IMG/VR virus record: IMGVR_UViG_2541047695_000006
DNA length: 10,524 nt
Source: a virus
Taxonomy: Duplodnaviria; Heunggongvirae; Uroviricota; Caudoviricetes
Strand: one strand, 5' to 3'
Below the pieces are notes generated by a model. That model saw nothing but the letters and a program-made list of their open reading frames with translations. It had not been told where the DNA came from and made no database searches. Each line of letters begins with the position of its first letter. The first letter of the stretch is position 1. Below are positions 1,768-8,811 of this stretch, piece after piece. Position numbers and translations under genes: made by a program.

Positions 1768-1974
1768 ATGGAAGTAATCAGAAAAATTCTTACCCGTCAG
1801 GAAGTAAAAAATATTCTGCGCATCAAGGCAGACAGTTCGCTACAGGACATGATCAACGCCGGAAAATTCCCGAAAGGCTTCAAAATCGGTCTGCGCCGTG
1901 TTGGCTGGTATGAAGATGAGGTGCAGGCCTGGTTGAAAGAACGCGAGGAAGAAGCGCGCGGAACGGCTGCGTAA
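1768..1974 (+). CDS. alpA: AlpA-family phage transcriptional regulator (HTH, excisionase-like)
   Basis: 68-aa ORF with the AlpA-type motif LTRQEVKNILRIKADSSLQDMINAGKFPKGFKIGLRRVGWYEDEVQAWL. GAGGT RBS about 9 nt upstream. Confidence 0.85.
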   Translation: MEVIRKILTRQEVKNILRIKADSSLQDMINAGKFPKGFKIGLRRVGWYEDEVQAWLKEREEEARGTAA

Positions 1975-2232
1975 TGGTGTGAGGTGTAACGCAATGAACA
2001 TAACAAAAAGCGCCCCGTTGCCGGAGCGCCCTTGTGAACAATTAACCTGCTGCGAAAAAAATGGATCAGTGCAGGGGAATTATATCAACTGTGTGAAGAA
2101 GCGCCACTATTGCCGGATAACAGGCAAAGAAAAGGCCACCAGTCACGGTAGCCCTGCGACACAAATTTCGCGTTATCCCCAACGCATGAGCATCGCCAAC
2201 AATGCCACATTTGCGGCTGGTGGGCAATGCAA

Positions 2233-2421
2233 TCAGTCTGGTTCAGTTCGTTGCCATACCTGCAATGAGCGCTTTTCCCTGTACTCTTTAAGGAATTGCT
2301 CAAGGGCAAAAGCACATGGCGCGAATCTTTCTGATTCATGCTCTATCTTTCTGCGCCGTCTTTTCCGTGCCGGTGATAATGTTTTGGTCAATTCTTTATC
2401 GGTCATTGTGTTGTCCTGCAT
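2233..2421 (-). CDS. Hypothetical small basic protein, possibly co-transcribed with the RHH gene
   Basis: 62-aa ORF in the track, immediately downstream (minus strand) of the RHH ORF. No domain recognised and RBS is weak. Confidence 0.2.
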   Translation of the reverse strand: MQDNTMTDKELTKTLSPARKRRRRKIEHESERFAPCAFALEQFLKEYREKRSLQVWQRTEPD

Positions 2422-2463
2422 AGCAATGCGCCGTAATACCTTACACCACGGCGCTGATGGTGA

Positions 2464-2643
2464 TTACTCTGGTTCTTTGGCCTTGCGCCGCTGGCGATAT
2501 TCAACTTCTCGTTTTAATGCCGCAGTAACAAATTGCCCCGTACTTTCGCCAGGCATTTTTACCGCCTCAACATTGTTCATAACTTCATGCGGAACCCTTG
2601 CCGCAACGGTTTGTGATTTTGCGTTTACCGCTTTTGTCGCCAT
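2464..2643 (-). CDS. Small ribbon-helix-helix-like DNA-binding protein (59 aa), candidate repressor; not in the ORF track because it is under 60 aa
   Basis: Translated by hand: MATKAVNAKSQTVAARVPHEVMNNVEAVKMPGESTGQFVTAALKREVEYRQRRKAKEPE. GAGGGG RBS 8 nt upstream. Divergent from the rightward operon and directly facing three palindromic operators. Confidence 0.5.
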   Translation of the reverse strand: MATKAVNAKSQTVAARVPHEVMNNVEAVKMPGESTGQFVTAALKREVEYRQRRKAKEPE

Positions 2644-2693
2644 GTGGTGTACCCCTCATAAAAAACAAATGCAGTATGCAGGAAAAAAAATAA

Positions 2694-2745
2694 GTGTTCA
2701 ACACTTGACGTGTTTAACACCTGGGTTTAAATTGGTGTTCAACAC
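2694..2745. promoter_or_regulatory. Divergent promoter/operator region with three 11-bp palindromes GTGTT(C/T)AACAC
   Basis: Palindromes at 2694-2704, 2710-2720 and 2735-2745. A sigma70-like -35 TTGACG (2705-2710) and -10 TTAAAT (2728-2733) with 17-bp spacer point rightward and are interleaved with the palindromes. Confidence 0.5.
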
Positions 2746-2842
2746 CTTGTTGGCGCAAGGTGCAGAAACGACGAAACCCGGCAGTGCGCTAACACTAACC
2801 GGGCTTCTAACCACCAACGATAGCGAAAGTATCGAGGTAGCT

Positions 2843-3049
2843 ATGAGAAATCATACCACACACCCGCAAGGGCGGGACTCGCACAACCTGAATAAATACA
2901 TCTGGCGTTTTATCGCCCTGAGCACGGCACAACCGCGCGTGATTACCATTGAGGCCACCAGCGAACAGGAAGCGCGTCAGCAATCTCCTGATGGCTGCGT
3001 GATGGTATTCGCTGCCCGTATTCGCCAGGGGGAAACCTATGCACAATAA
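2843..3049 (+). CDS. Small protein (68 aa), first gene of the rightward operon; tentatively Icd-like
   Basis: In-frame C-terminal part of the 1979..3049 ORF, preceded by GAGGT RBS. Sequence MRNHTTHPQGRDSHNLNKYIWRFIALSTAQPRVITIEATSEQEARQQ... The family call is from memory and tentative. Confidence 0.55.
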   Translation: MRNHTTHPQGRDSHNLNKYIWRFIALSTAQPRVITIEATSEQEARQQSPDGCVMVFAARIRQGETYAQ

Positions 3050-3275
3050 AACCACACCGGACGCAGCCGCCGAAGCCATCAAAACGCTGATGCACGCGCT
3101 GATTGATATTTCTGTTATCGCAGACAAGGCGCATAAGCGCGCCACCAGCGAAACAGAATATGCCGGGGCTTTCGTTCCTCACTCACTGGCTGTTATGCAA
3201 CTTAGTGCTGATATGGCGCTGAATGAAGCAGGCAAAATTCTTACCGCAGATATTCAAGGGGCGCACCATGCATGA
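3039..3275 (+). CDS. Hypothetical protein (78 aa)
   Basis: ORF in the track. GGGGGA RBS; start overlaps the upstream stop (translational coupling). Confidence 0.5.
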   Translation: MHNKTTPDAAAEAIKTLMHALIDISVIADKAHKRATSETEYAGAFVPHSLAVMQLSADMALNEAGKILTADIQGAHHA

Positions 3276-3500: not shown

Positions 3501-3788
3501 ATGAAACAGAAAATTTCTGGCTTTACTGCCAGCGGCCCCGCTCGGCCTGAAATCCGCCCCGGCGATATTTTCCGGGATAACTATGGCGGCACGGTAACGA
3601 TAAAAGGCGTGGCAGAACGGCGCATCACTTACCGCCGTGATGGCTACGAATATGACTGCGTGATGCCTGTTTATCAGTTCCGGCGTGATTTCACGCTGGT
3701 GGGCCATCGTAAAGCCGTAAATCAGAAACGTGCAGCAAGTCATATCCGCAAAATTCGTGAAATGCTGGTCGCAGGGGGTAAAAAATGA
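3501..3788 (+). CDS. Hypothetical protein (95 aa)
   Basis: ORF in the track. Its stop overlaps the rep start in an ATGA arrangement. Confidence 0.5.
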   Translation: MKQKISGFTASGPARPEIRPGDIFRDNYGGTVTIKGVAERRITYRRDGYEYDCVMPVYQFRRDFTLVGHRKAVNQKRAASHIRKIREMLVAGGKK

Positions 3789-5191
3789 AACTGGCACCGA
3801 ACGTAAAACTGTTACCGAAAGATAAACACACTGAGGCGGTTATTTTTGCGGGTGATAATGCTCACTCCTTTGCAGAACATTACATGATTGCACAGGCCAA
3901 AAAAGCAGGCGATCCCATCCCTCCGGTTTACCTGGGCCGTTATCAGTTAAGCGAACTGGACAACCTGCAGATTGTTGATGAGGGGCGATACAGGGTAACG
4001 GTGATACGCGCCGGAAATATTGACGAAGCGCAGCTGTTAACCATAGCGACAAAACTGGCGATCGCCGGAGTCCAGGAAGCGCGGCTGCTTTCTGAAAACT
4101 TCGAATTACTGGAGAAATGGACCGACCAGCTTCCACGGCTACGGGAGACATGGGAGAGAGGGGAAAGCCTGATCATGAACGGAGGAAAACAAAAAATCAC
4201 GCTACCGATTTCATGGGGTTCTGAGGGATTCGACGCGCAGCAAAGCTACGTAATTAAGGGGCTTATTCCGGCTGAATCATTATGCAGCACCTACGGGGCC
4301 AGCGGTTCTTATAAATCGTTCCTGGCTATTTCCTGGTCGTGCCATGTTGCCACAGGTATGGCATGGGGAGGCCGCAGGGTAAGTAAGGGCGCGGTTATCT
4401 ATATCGCTGGCGAAGGCAGTATGGGCGTAAAACGCCGCGTTAAGGCGTGGGAGATAACCCACGACAAGGTGGTTACGGATTTGTGCATCGTTAACGCGCC
4501 TGTCTTCCCTGCATCGCCTGACTATGTGGAGCAGGTTATCAGGACCGCCGGATTAGTGCAGGACAGAACGGGCGAAAGGGTGCGGATGATTGTCATTGAC
4601 ACGCTGGCCCGTTGCTTTGGTGGTCATGATGAAAATGACTCCCGCGACATGGGGGCGTTTATCCAGGGGTGTGACGCGATAAAGCAGGCCACGGGGGCCA
4701 CGGTTCTGGTTGTGCATCATTCCGGCAAGGATGAGACGAAAGGGGCGCGGGGTTCCAGTGCATTCCGTGCGGCGCTTGATGCTGAGTTCCGAATCAGTCG
4801 GGAACATTCAGAGGCTACGGCGCTGGTTGCAGCATGTACGAAGATGAAGGACGCGGAGGAGCCAAAAGAAAGCGCCTACGACCTTAAGAGCGTGGAGGTA
4901 TTTACGGATCCTGAGGGTGAAGAAATCGTGTCCATGGTGGTGATTGACGTTCCCCGCGCCCCTGCTGAACTGGAGCGCATAGAGGAGGCCGGGAACAAGA
5001 CGGAAAATCACACGGCTTTATGGGGTTGTATCCGGTCACGTATACAGCATGGTGATAAATGCACGATCCCGCTGCTACGTGATGACATGAAAAAGCTGGG
5101 ATATGACACAAAACACCTTAAACGATGGTTAGCCAAACTGGAAAAAGACGGCGTGATTTGCGTCGATGGGGATGATGTTCACCCACTGTAA
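3785..5191 (+). CDS. Replication initiator / helicase-like protein (RecA/DnaB-like ATPase, PICI pri-rep-like)
   Basis: 468-aa ORF with a P-loop-like GASGSYKS, a Walker-B-like MIVIDTLARCF and VLVVHHSGKDETKGARGSSAF. AGGGGGT RBS. Directly followed by an iteron array. Confidence 0.8.
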   Translation: MKLAPNVKLLPKDKHTEAVIFAGDNAHSFAEHYMIAQAKKAGDPIPPVYLGRYQLSELDNLQIVDEGRYRVTVIRAGNIDEAQLLTIATKLAIAGVQEARLLSENFELLEKWTDQLPRLRETWERGESLIMNGGKQKITLPISWGSEGFDAQQSYVIKGLIPAESLCSTYGASGSYKSFLAISWSCHVATGMAWGGRRVSKGAVIYIAGEGSMGVKRRVKAWEITHDKVVTDLCIVNAPVFPASPDYVEQVIRTAGLVQDRTGERVRMIVIDTLARCFGGHDENDSRDMGAFIQGCDAIKQATGATVLVVHHSGKDETKGARGSSAFRAALDAEFRISREHSEATALVAACTKMKDAEEPKESAYDLKSVEVFTDPEGEEIVSMVVIDVPRAPAELERIEEAGNKTENHTALWGCIRSRIQHGDKCTIPLLRDDMKKLGYDTKHLKRWLAKLEKDGVICVDGDDVHPL

Positions 5192-6109: not shown

Positions 6110-6280
6110 GCTACATAAATCCCGACCAAAGGAAGTAAATACATTAACACGAATTATCAGCACTGAAGTTGTCACGGCAGATTTTATACAACATTGCACT
6201 TGGTTGCATGTATTCGCATAGCAGACATCGGTAATAGAATATATTCACAATTATTTGTAATGAATGTAAAGAGGATGAGT

Positions 6281-7321
6281 ATGGTTGATTTATATTCGCC
6301 TACACAGCTTGTGCAGGTGGCTAATGCTGAAGATGTGCAAAAAAAACTAAATGCGTTGTTTACCAGTTTGTTTTTCACTCGCTCGGTAATGTTTGAATCG
6401 AGAGACATTATTCTTGATACGATCGACGATCCAAATATCCCGATCGCGGCGTTTTGCTCTCCTATGGTGGGCAGTAAAGTTTCACGAGATGAGGGATACG
6501 AATCAAAAACAATTCGCCCAGGCTATATGAAACCGAAAAGCAGTATTGATCCAAATAAGTTAGCTGTGCGCCCTGCTGGTGTATCACCTGAACAATACAA
6601 TGCTTTTGGAGCGCGTAATATTAAAGTTAAACAGGCGATTGTAAATCAGGCTAAAGCTATACGTGCACGTATTGAATGGCTTGCTGTTCAGGCAATCACA
6701 ACGGGGAAAAATATCATTGAGGGCGATGGTATTGAACGTTATGAACTGGACTGGAATATAAAACCACAAAATATTATCACGCAGTCTGGCGGTGCTGAGT
6801 GGTCAGGTAAGGATAAAGAAACTTTTGATCCAAATGATGATATTGAGAGCTACGCAGAATTTAGTGAGGGCGTCACTAATATCATCATTATGGGCGGTAA
6901 TGTATGGAAGAAATACCGTTCATTCAGAGCGATAAAAGAGGCTCTGGATACCCGTCGTGGTTCTAATTCCGAACTGGAAACGGCCCTTAAAGACCTTGGT
7001 GATTCGGTGAGTTTTAAAGGGTATATGGGCGATGTTGCGATTGTTGTTTACAGCGGACGTTATACCGACGAGGACGGAACTGAAAAACATTTCCTTGATC
7101 CTGATTTGATGGTGCTTGGCAATACGGCTCTTCAGGGGATTGTCGCCTATGGCGGTATTCAGGATCCGGAGCTAATCCGAATGGGGCTGACTAAAGCCGA
7201 ACTTGCACCGAAAAACTATATTGTGCCTGGTGATCCGGCTATTGAGTACATACAAACGCACTCTGCACCACAGCCAATACCGGCCCGCATCAATCGTTTT
7301 GTTACCGTTCGCATTGGCTAA
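6281..7321 (+). CDS. Major capsid protein, lambda gpE-like family
   Basis: Collinear similarity to lambda gpE, for example NIITQSGGAEWSGKDKETFDPNDDIESYA and DTRRGSNSELETALKDLGDSVSFKGYMGDVAIVVYSGRY. AGAGG RBS at 6-nt spacing. An alternative start at 6275 (MSM...) matches the lambda N-terminus. Confidence 0.9.
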   Translation: MVDLYSPTQLVQVANAEDVQKKLNALFTSLFFTRSVMFESRDIILDTIDDPNIPIAAFCSPMVGSKVSRDEGYESKTIRPGYMKPKSSIDPNKLAVRPAGVSPEQYNAFGARNIKVKQAIVNQAKAIRARIEWLAVQAITTGKNIIEGDGIERYELDWNIKPQNIITQSGGAEWSGKDKETFDPNDDIESYAEFSEGVTNIIIMGGNVWKKYRSFRAIKEALDTRRGSNSELETALKDLGDSVSFKGYMGDVAIVVYSGRYTDEDGTEKHFLDPDLMVLGNTALQGIVAYGGIQDPELIRMGLTKAELAPKNYIVPGDPAIEYIQTHSAPQPIPARINRFVTVRIG

Positions 7322-7330
7322 GGGGGAGCA

Positions 7331-7672
7331 ATGGCTACTCATTACACTGAACTCATGTCTGGTACTGAAGCACTGGTTACTACGCTGGGGATATTTTCAG
7401 CCAATAAAGGGGTAATACCTGCGTTTACGCCACTGATGCAGGAAGATGCAACTGGTGCGCTAGTGGTATGGGATGGAACGAGCGCAGGCAAAGCGGTTTA
7501 TGTTTCCGCTGTACAAATCGACACAGCGAAAAAAACACAGGCACAGGTTTATAAGACAGGTGTTTTAAATGTTGATGCTCTGAACTGGCCTGAGTCTGTA
7601 AGAGAACTGTCGGCAAAGGTTGCCGCGTTTGTTGGCTCAGGTATTTCTGTTCAGCCGCTGGCTCGTGTGTAA
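7331..7672 (+). CDS. Head decoration protein, lambda gpD-like
   Basis: 113-aa ORF with gpD-like motifs PAFTPLM, VVWDGT, YKTGxxxxDALNWPE and AFVGSGISV. GGGGGAG RBS. Confidence 0.8.
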   Translation: MATHYTELMSGTEALVTTLGIFSANKGVIPAFTPLMQEDATGALVVWDGTSAGKAVYVSAVQIDTAKKTQAQVYKTGVLNVDALNWPESVRELSAKVAAFVGSGISVQPLARV

Positions 7673-7683
7673 AGGGGGATACA

Positions 7684-8067
7684 ATGCAGAATCATTACAA
7701 TGACCTTAAGCCAATTGCCGAAATGATGTATCCGGATCCAGCAGTAGAGGAATTAAAGGCTATTGCTGACAAAATGCGTTTAAGTGAACGCCTTGTTGAT
7801 ATGAATCAGGTGATGGAACTTACTACCCTTAGCCGTCGCACATTGCTAAACCTTGAGGCTCGTGGAGAGTTCCCCGAACGCGTACAGGTTACGGAAGGGC
7901 GTAAGGCCTGGTATTTAAGTGAAGTGATCGACTGGATAAACAATATTCCTCGAGCTTCTGAATATTGCCGCGTACCTGTCCCCAAAAAGCCAGATGCGGC
8001 GCTATGCCTCAAGATTGAGCGTGTACGTCGCAATGCACGGGATGGTCGCTATAAGTTGATTGGTTGA
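7684..8067 (+). CDS. AlpA/MerR-like HTH DNA-binding protein (127 aa) immediately upstream of cos
   Basis: HTH segment LTTLSRRTLLNLEARGEFPERVQVTEGRKAWYLSEVIDWINN. AGGGGGA RBS. About 40 N-terminal residues have no recognisable signature. Confidence 0.65.
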   Translation: MQNHYNDLKPIAEMMYPDPAVEELKAIADKMRLSERLVDMNQVMELTTLSRRTLLNLEARGEFPERVQVTEGRKAWYLSEVIDWINNIPRASEYCRVPVPKKPDAALCLKIERVRRNARDGRYKLIG

Positions 8068-8120
8068 TGAAATTAGGGCCCGTTCTGGCTGGCGGGTCCT
8101 TTCCGGCGATCCGGCAGGCT

Positions 8121-8241
8121 ACGGGGCGGCGACCTTGCGGATTTTCGCTATTTATGAGCCTTTTCGGGTTGGTGGTGGTGGTTTTGTTTTTCGCTCTATC
8201 TCTATGAATAAAAAGGGAAAGATAACACCAACACACCAACC
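8121..8241 (+). other. Lambda-like cohesive end site: cosN (12-nt cohesive-end sequence at 8124-8135) plus cosB-like repeats
   Basis: GGGCGGCGACCT at 8124-8135 and the following about 35 nt closely match the lambda left-end sequence as recalled. Downstream are GGTTGGTGGTGGTGG (8167-8181), an A/T-rich tract, and a tandem ACACCAAC x2 (8225-8240) in inverted orientation, ending about 30 bp before the Nu1-like start. Confidence 0.7.
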
Positions 8242-8268
8242 TGAAACCTTAACTAAGTGGGGATATTG

Positions 8269-8811
8269 ATGAAATCGCACCTGATGAACAAAAAAACTAT
8301 GGCGCAAAGCTGCCGCGTAAGTGCGACAGCGTTCGACAAGTGGGGAGTAACTCCCGTTGAGCGTAAAGGCCGTGAGGCGTTTTATGATGTTGCTAGCGTG
8401 ATAGACAATAGGGTTAACAATGCAATTAACCAGCTTACAAACGACAAAGGCGAGATTGATGATGATGAACTTTTACGCGTAAGAATCAGATTAATGACGG
8501 CCCAGGCGGAAGCGCAGGAACTTAAAAACGAGCGCGAACGCGGCGAGGTGATTGATACAAAGTTTTGCATCTACGCGATTTCAAAACTAGCGAGTCAGAT
8601 TTCATCAATCATGGACAGCCTCCCGCTCACAATGCAAAGGCGCTTTCCCGATATAAGGCCGTATATGCTGGATGAACTAAAAAGGGAAATAGCCAAAGCA
8701 TGTAACGCATGTGCAAGACTTGACGAAAACCTGCCACAGATACTGGCTGATTACCTGATGGAAACTACCGGAAACGCGCCTGAGAAGTTGCTACAGAACA
8801 AAGGCGAGTAA
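8269..8811 (+). CDS. Terminase small subunit, lambda Nu1-like
   Basis: About 180 aa, collinear with lambda Nu1: N-terminal winged-HTH region (NKK...FYDVASVI) and TAQAEAQELKNERERGEVIDTKFCIYAISKLASQISSIMDSLPLTMQRRFPD. The start at 8269 has a GGGGA RBS; the track ORF begins at an upstream GTG (8257). Confidence 0.85.
   Translation: MKSHLMNKKTMAQSCRVSATAFDKWGVTPVERKGREAFYDVASVIDNRVNNAINQLTNDKGEIDDDELLRVRIRLMTAQAEAQELKNERERGEVIDTKFCIYAISKLASQISSIMDSLPLTMQRRFPDIRPYMLDELKREIAKACNACARLDENLPQILADYLMETTGNAPEKLLQNKGE

Follow-up and report, generated by a model that had tools for sequence, protein, structure and literature searches.

We analysed a 10,524-nucleotide stretch of DNA, here called the window, from the IMG/VR virus record IMGVR_UViG_2541047695_000006 (Caudoviricetes). 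In it, a small leftward gene faces a cluster of palindromes that precedes a rightward replication operon. An earlier reading of the letters alone (the sequence-only reading) had taken this arrangement for a repressor-controlled switch in which the small gene encodes a ribbon-helix-helix (RHH) protein. The gene lies at 2464-2643 on the minus strand, starts with ATG, stops with TAA and encodes 59 amino acids (MATKAVNAKSQTVAARVPHEVMNNVEAVKMPGESTGQFVTAALKREVEYRQRRKAKEPE). Its strong ribosome-binding site, also seen earlier, is the Shine-Dalgarno sequence GAGGGG (2652-2657, minus strand), 8 nt before the ATG. The gene had been described as unannotated, which was an effect of a 60-aa threshold; RefSeq already calls it a YlcI/YnfO family protein, function unknown.

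By the curated cut-off of 30, the product belongs to the YlcI/YnfO family: its match to the NCBIfam model YlcI/YnfO_N (NF041551), over residues 9-50, scored 59.7 bits (E 2.1e-16). Its PHROG match was phrog_949. The gene is called ylcI below. The family is small, with 74 clusters at 90% identity and, among 1.84 billion representatives, 82 clusters at 50% identity. Its members are spread across several genera, and longer ones (100-137 aa) occur among those clusters. The phage collection held a single YlcI relative, on a 16.5-kb satellite-like record. One E. coli island (L042) carries a second, unrelated-looking RHH-like gene of 59 aa (FQFRLDPDLREKMEKA...; L042:2185-2364, plus strand) about 500 bp downstream of ylcI, with its own GC-rich hairpin upstream.

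An RHH fold is likely for YlcI. The predicted fold matched RHH proteins only, with low scores, and comprises a predicted recognition strand at about residues 11-17 (QTVAARV) followed by helices at residues 19-28 and 35-56. By hhalign, K9-P31 fell on K6-E28 of Arc, with R16-V17-P18 on Arc R13-W14-P15. In the family alignment R16, P18 and H19 are invariant, positions 13, 15 and 17 are small or hydrophobic, and positions 12 and 14 are hypervariable. The strand pattern thus agrees with that of RHH proteins, in which polar residues point outward and hydrophobic ones inward in alternation before a Pro or Gly caps the helix. A distant family member, P0150, matched Pfam RHH_1 at 20.5 bits, which equals the gathering score; for the window protein this is a transitive link only.

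Upstream of ylcI lie three near-identical 11-bp palindromes of consensus GTGTTYAACAC, as the sequence-only reading had noted: O3 (GTGTTCAACAC, 2694-2704), O2 (GTGTTTAACAC, 2710-2720) and O1 (GTGTTCAACAC, or GGTGTTCAACACC including flanks; 2735-2745). Their start-to-start spacings are 16 and 25 bp. A motif scan of the window returned no further match at up to one mismatch and no additional credible copy at two mismatches. Six strand matches were observed where 0.45 were expected by chance, a number reached by none of 200 shuffled sequences. The palindromes are indeed interleaved with a rightward sigma70-like promoter, P_R (2705-2733, plus strand), which consists of TTGACG (2705-2710), a 17-bp spacer and TAAATT (2728-2733) and was the only such promoter returned by a scan of 1900-3100. 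O3 abuts the -35 element of P_R; O2 begins at the last base of the -35 and lies within the spacer; O1 follows directly on the -10 and covers the expected start at ~2740.

A leftward promoter, P_L, can be read from the sequence at 2673-2701 on the minus strand (TTGAAC at 2701-2696, 17 bp, CATACT at 2678-2673); at 8 of 12 consensus positions it fell below the scan threshold and is our own reading, not a tool hit. The P_L -35 lies inside O3, the leftmost palindrome, and the -10 (CATACT or TATACT) is conserved in position across related loci. On this map the three sites occupy the positions of a repressor: the P_R spacer, the P_R start and the divergent promoter. A small inverted repeat, CACCTTG..CAAGGTG (2742-2749/2756-2763), starts within O1, where the predicted P_R transcript has its 5' end; other loci have similar repeats after O1. 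It may form a 5' stem-loop in the mRNA or serve as an extra half-site.

Co-variation and exchange of ylcI and the palindromes

We compared 36 related loci, one genome per species, and 13 more found by exact-protein look-up. The TTGAC of the divergent promoter stood 62 +/- 1 nt from the ylcI ATG with few exceptions, in which the upstream region is of another kind or has been rearranged (for example L004, L005, L025 and L026). Over about 45 loci the layout is constant to the single base. In 28 loci the -35 stood at +62 with the sites at constant offsets: one site started from the last -35 base, a second followed the -10 and a third lay over the leftward -10 (TATACT). In the allele class of the window the third site is on the leftward -35 instead, and some members of this class have both, that is, four sites. 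The order int / alpA / ylcI (leftward), then P_R driving an icd-like gene and, further on, DUF4222 and a primase or helicase, is kept in nearly all related loci. Every site has the form GTG-N5-CAC; the N5 is common to all copies of one locus and differs between alleles. The palindrome and the small open reading frame (ORF) are thus conserved in related islands as a layout, in which N5 co-varies with YlcI.

About 16 operator specificity classes were found in all, and they follow the predicted recognition strand. Alleles with QT(V/L/I)AA at residues 11-15 (A14) go with GTGTTYAACAC, those with (K/R)KLEA (E14) with GTGGCTGACAC, KRFDV (D14) with GTGTCSGACAC, QSLKS or QALKA (K14) with GTGGRCCACAC, and QKLQ(A/T) (Q14) with GTGGAGTCCAC; QKIHA, QKMSA, QSVTA and QALRA go with GTGGAACAC, CTGGCACCCA, GTGTAAGACAC and GTGTAGACCAC, respectively. 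Residue 14 was the best single-column predictor of the operator (mutual information 0.50 bits; next column 0.26), and the probability of the same operator given the same residue was 0.86 vs 0.00. QALRAR and QALKAR alleles differ in the strand at residue 14 alone, and their operators differ. Out of sample, the operator predicted from residue 14 was correct at every site for P0043 (E. coli), P0053 (Salmonella) and P0035 (Klebsiella), and at two of three sites for P0059. In P0053 the gene under control is KilA-N in place of Icd-like. EcCICFT073, the model island discussed below, has K14 and the operator expected for it, GTGGGCCACAC. Within the A14 class, in which O3 too is conserved, loci from four genera were invariant at 28 of 33 operator positions vs 13 of 38 other intergenic positions (Fisher p 3e-5).

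Two natural swaps separate YlcI from the other proteins of the island. A twin island, L001 (strain 504239), is located at tRNA-Pro between yejM and yejO. Its Int, AlpA, orf78, DUF4222, RepA and helix-turn-helix (HTH) proteins are 100% identical to those of the window and its Icd-like protein is 96% identical, with the DNA replaced at ~2505-2802. YlcI of L001 is a 101-aa allele with 37% identity over the RHH part, and all the window sites are replaced by GTGTGCATACA, TGTACACACAC and GTGTATGTACA around a TTGACA promoter. This allele (L001:9765-10070, minus strand) consists of the RHH part and a helical C-terminal extension. It has the same RRKAKEQE tail end, which places the left recombination boundary within the 3' end of ylcI. 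In the second swap the cassette at 2473-2914 is shared with an Edwardsiella hoshinae locus (L002) at 91% DNA identity, with YlcI 100% identical over 57 residues; the flanks cannot be aligned, and Int, the Icd-like protein and RepA are 77%, 52% and 51% identical.

YlcI is the sole protein that moves with the sites in both swaps, which excludes AlpA, the Icd-like protein and host factors as the determinant of specificity. Together these comparisons support the three sites as cognate operators of YlcI. In these comparisons the gene of the predicted repressor is exchanged together with its operators and the leader, in the manner of an immunity cassette that exists in many specificities. The window's version (2505-2800) was found in 508 of 5426 complete E. 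coli genomes. In three further loci (L045, L044 and L053) the same RHH/operator unit drives other first genes (KilA-N, Ash; AntA nearby), which marks the repressor-operator unit as a portable control module.

A putative antisense RNA over the icd-like start

The leader between O1 and the icd-like ATG is conserved and appears to encode, on the minus strand, a structured cis-antisense RNA of about 80 nt (2762-2842). A sub-threshold Rfam match, covariation and folding point to this RNA. Its predicted parts are a 5' hairpin (2842-2809), a single-stranded stretch, a GC-rich 3' hairpin (2807-2773) and a U-rich tail. It is complementary to the Shine-Dalgarno sequence and start codon of icd-like, the loop of the 5' hairpin being complementary to the Shine-Dalgarno sequence. 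An alignment of 25 loci gave pairing in 97.4% of cells of the two hairpins and compensatory changes in 16 of 25 pairs; none of 500 shuffles was as good. On the sense strand 99 G-U pairs turn into A-C mismatches, and pairing falls to 81.9%. The minimum free energy in the window was -35.1 kcal/mol for the minus strand (z -4.45) vs -20.5 for the sense strand (z -1.35). A putative extended -10 promoter, TGgTATGAT (2850-2858, minus strand), lies 7 nt upstream of the RNA 5' end. A TAnnnT hexamer occupies the same position in 25 of 25 loci (TATAAT in L001), a conservation partly confounded by coding constraint since the hexamer lies in the icd-like coding sequence.

No Rfam family reached its gathering threshold in the window, and C4 and isrK, reported in other PICIs (phage-inducible chromosomal islands), were not found there. 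Below threshold there was a full-length match to SymR (RF01809) at 2770-2842 on the minus strand, with 33.3 bits (E 1.5e-4) against a gathering score of 61. The match recurs on the same strand in L010, L013 and L006, and relatives score 28-40 bits. The two RNAs share the two-hairpin architecture and length (model positions 1-77 matched) and an antisense position over the 5' untranslated region and start codon of a gene for a small, potentially harmful protein. They differ in that the target here is Icd-like and not SymE; given this and the low scores, the two may or may not be homologous. The putative RNA is missing where the RHH module drives a KilA-N gene; it is tied to the Icd-like genes, not to the RHH gene.

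The proposed switch and its alternatives

Our preferred reading, to which we give a probability of about three in four, is that YlcI is an RHH repressor that acts on the GTG-N5-CAC sites and silences the icd-like/replication operon, with autoregulation and an antisense RNA layer, and that it forms part of an exchangeable cassette. The repressor-switch layout proposed by the sequence-only reading gains support here from the co-variation of site and protein, from the swaps and from the gene order kept in nearly all related loci. We infer binding, repression and autoregulation by YlcI from these comparisons of sequence. A YlcI dimer would place its N-terminal beta-ribbon into the major groove of each 11-bp site. 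We assign the invariant outer G-C pairs, as probable contacts, to the invariant Arg16, and the variable central 5 bp likewise to residues 12 and 14. RHH dimers at O2, in the P_R spacer, and at O1, at the P_R start, would block RNA polymerase at the icd-like/DUF4222/RepA-helicase promoter and so keep the integrated satellite quiescent. O3, on the P_L -35, would provide negative autoregulation of the repressor. As a second, independent layer, the antisense RNA would block translation of leaky icd-like mRNA. Derepression could come from an antirepressor of the helper phage or from AlpA-driven transcription converging on ylcI; rightward alpA transcription that runs against the leftward ylcI unit is a speculative route.

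Several observations pull the other way. The window protein has no Pfam RHH match, and the same holds for 32 of 32 close relatives; it has no PDB sequence match either, and Foldseek searches against PDB and against viral models gave nothing significant. The AlphaFold2 monomer leaves the N-terminal strand unformed. Furthermore, in a Mantel test of operator against beta-strand distances the strand did not stand out from the remainder of the protein (partial r 0.14), which reflects the physical linkage and joint inheritance of gene and sites; Xenorhabdus near-duplicates dominate the data of this test. Owing to this linkage, the argument rests on the concerted change of all site copies, the localisation of the signal to residue 14 and N5, the predictions and the swaps.

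The remaining difficulty concerns AlpA. The published model for Gram-negative PICIs is activation by AlpA, with no repressor identified (PMC6092414). EcCICFT073 needs AlpA for induction and transfer, and over-expressing AlpA is sufficient to make the island excise and replicate (PMC6092414). A YlcI repressor therefore cannot be the sole gate: either AlpA counteracts YlcI or works upstream of it, or only part of the programme is under the guard of the module.

These AlpA data favour the strongest alternative, which we nevertheless consider unlikely. In it, YlcI binds the sites as proposed and the module is an accessory circuit of the immI type that guards a toxic or helper-directed product, as P22 Mnt guards ant, with AlpA as the master switch. 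Consistent with this, the first controlled gene is Icd-like here and of Ash, KilA-N or AntA type in other loci (PMC13612085), and the antisense RNA would guard the icd-like gene specifically. Against it, icd-like and the genes after it, up to the helicase or primase, lie on one strand and abut or overlap one another, both in the window and in EcCICFT073, and our scan found no second promoter before them; P_R is thus the obvious promoter of the replication genes.

Far less probable is an antitoxin role, in which YlcI would be the RHH antitoxin of a pair with the next leftward ORF and the sites would serve its own autoregulation only. This basic ORF (2233-2421, minus strand; 62 aa; phrog_21027, 1.6e-15) is annotated in L001 and CFT073 and is probably co-transcribed with ylcI, and a terminator-like hairpin with a T run (2006-2033, minus strand) would end the leftward unit. 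It lies outside the exchanged cassette and is not conserved beyond E. coli islands; in other loci ylcI is followed by other genes or by none, so that there is no conserved partner. Apart from the RHH and a basic tail, YlcI has no further domain; of the three sites, two lie on the core of the divergent P_R and not on P_L; and neither PADLOC nor toxin families gave a match.

We give equally little credence to the idea that the palindromes are bound by another factor (AlpA, the Icd-like protein, or a host or helper-phage protein) and that the small gene is unrelated to them. The PHROG label of Icd-like relatives is indeed 'transcriptional repressor', and AlpA is a known DNA-binding activator of such islands (PMC6092414). 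Yet every site differs between the window and L001, where AlpA is identical and the Icd-like protein nearly so; a host factor cannot switch specificity between strains of one species; and the site sequence tracks residue 14 of YlcI, from which predictions held. It is scarcely credible that the ORF is no real gene, as its small size alone might suggest, and that the repeats are iterons of a replication origin or a product of chance, given the shuffling result, the conservation of the family across genera, the locking of the sites to promoter elements and a PICI origin that lies downstream of the replication genes (PMC6092414). We also considered a defence system and rejected it; PADLOC gave no match.

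The repressor reading bears on a wider question. According to a 2018 paper on this type of island, it was 'unclear' whether Gram-negative PICIs have a repressor, and the strategy proposed for them was wholly unlike that of Gram-positive ones, namely the AlpA activator (PMC6092414). Our search of the literature found no function reported for YlcI/YnfO and no later paper assigning a repressor. A bolder and tentative proposal, possible rather than probable in our view, is that YlcI/YnfO RHH proteins are the missing master repressors of EcCICFT073-type Gram-negative PICIs and of related cf-PICIs. They would have at least about 16 interchangeable specificities, set mainly by one beta-strand residue, and helper phages would overcome them directly or through AlpA-driven transcription converging on ylcI. 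If true, this would replace the activator-only picture.

An RHH repressor on divergent promoters is a known type of switch, and the family name existed before. Four things appear to be undescribed in the searchable literature: a function assigned to YlcI/YnfO, the presence of this protein in the model Gram-negative PICI, the panel of co-varying specificities, and the antisense RNA. The cassette of this allele alone is present in about one-tenth of complete E. coli genomes and the module also in EcCICFT073, so that the repressor question is directly testable. The cassettes would form a ready set of small orthogonal repressor/operator pairs and suggest a simple recognition code of residue 14 versus the central 5 bp. 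They also point to a likely function for two K-12 genes of unknown function, ylcI and ynfO.

The island and comparison with known systems

The window is an integrative element of 10.5 kb and begins with an integrase (1-1242) and AlpA (1768-1974), followed by the two small leftward genes and a rightward block. The first gene of the block is icd-like (2843-3049, plus strand; 68 aa; NCBIfam NF033153, 70.4 bits). After it come, without gaps, two small ORFs, the DUF4222 gene (3501-3788, plus strand; Pfam DUF4222) and a RepA-type helicase (3785-5191, plus strand; Pfam AAA_25), and then SSB; the RefSeq annotation of the twin island also supports the assignments in this operon. EcCICFT073, the best-studied Gram-negative PICI, has the order int, alpA, a hypothetical leftward gene, YlcI/YnfO (leftward), Icd-like (rightward), ..., DUF4222, primase, SSB, PerC, capsid and decoration. 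By this shared gene order the window is an EcCICFT073-type PICI. EcCICFT073 is our locus L041 (NC_004431.1 1377930-1388654), with ylcI at L041:20473-20652 on the minus strand, and carries the same YlcI/operator/Icd-like module in the form of a QALKAR allele with GTGGGCCACAC sites.

Like EcCICFT073, the window has its own capsid and decoration genes. After the replication genes, at 6194-8811, are genes for a lambda-like major capsid protein, for a decoration protein, for an HTH protein of 127 aa and for the small terminase subunit (TerS); the island lacks portal, protease and large terminase genes. This content fits neither a classical PICI, which is devoid of capsid genes, nor a complete cf-PICI, and recalls the PICIs with capsid genes described in PMC10111431. 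The Rfam int-alpA RNA motif (RF02996) scored above its gathering score between int and alpA in three related loci (L003:6853-6921, L007:6893-6961 and L022:6519-6587) and was not detected in the window.

The window protein has its NCBIfam N-terminal domain in common with YlcI and YnfO (DUF3950) of E. coli K-12, encoded in the cryptic prophages DLP12 and Qin, and YnfO also has the R-x-P...F-S-x-W-V pattern. The setting of ynfO (L055:6756-6989) differs: it lies between nohA and ydfO in the lambdoid Qin prophage, with no triple site and no fixed promoter layout upstream. The role of the family may be different in lambdoid prophages.

Among the Stl/Rpr master repressors of the Gram-positive PICIs (SaPIs), the Stl proteins are HTH proteins; YlcI is much smaller and its predicted fold is different. 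What the two would share is a repressor gene by int, divergent from the excision/replication operon, and the role of silencing the island until a helper is active (PMC6092414). The ylcI gene lies between int and the replication module and is divergent from the latter, which is the position of a master repressor.

The cassette exchange recalls the immunity mosaicism of lambdoid phages, in which repressor and operators are likewise exchanged between near-identical genomes and shared between divergent ones. There, the repressor is the HTH protein CI; here it would be an RHH protein, and the cassette spans only ~300-440 bp. The proposed module also resembles the immI region of P1/P7 (c4 RNA - icd - ant) and the CI RNA of P4. 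As there, the first controlled gene is Icd-like, an RNA would block its translation and the region would determine the immunity of a mobile element. The c4 and CI RNAs are processed out of the sense transcript, whereas here support for the structure is confined to the antisense strand. In P1, transcription is controlled by C1 and not by an RHH protein.

The closest analogue of the module as a whole appears to be immI of phage P22, whose Mnt and Arc are RHH proteins. No sequence relationship to them was detected by Pfam or PDB searches; P22 has one Mnt operator where the window has three 11-bp sites, and the window lacks arc and ant, its operon carrying replication genes and the element being a satellite rather than a phage. 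The window operon has no gene for Ant, KilA-N, Bro or Ash; genes of this kind follow the module in other loci. As summarised in PMC2629481, immI comprises mnt, facing P_ant arc ant, and the sar antisense RNA. Both modules would thus combine a small RHH maintenance repressor, whose gene diverges from the operon that it keeps silent, an operator over back-to-back promoters and a small cis-antisense RNA, here predicted, on the ribosome-binding site of a downstream gene.
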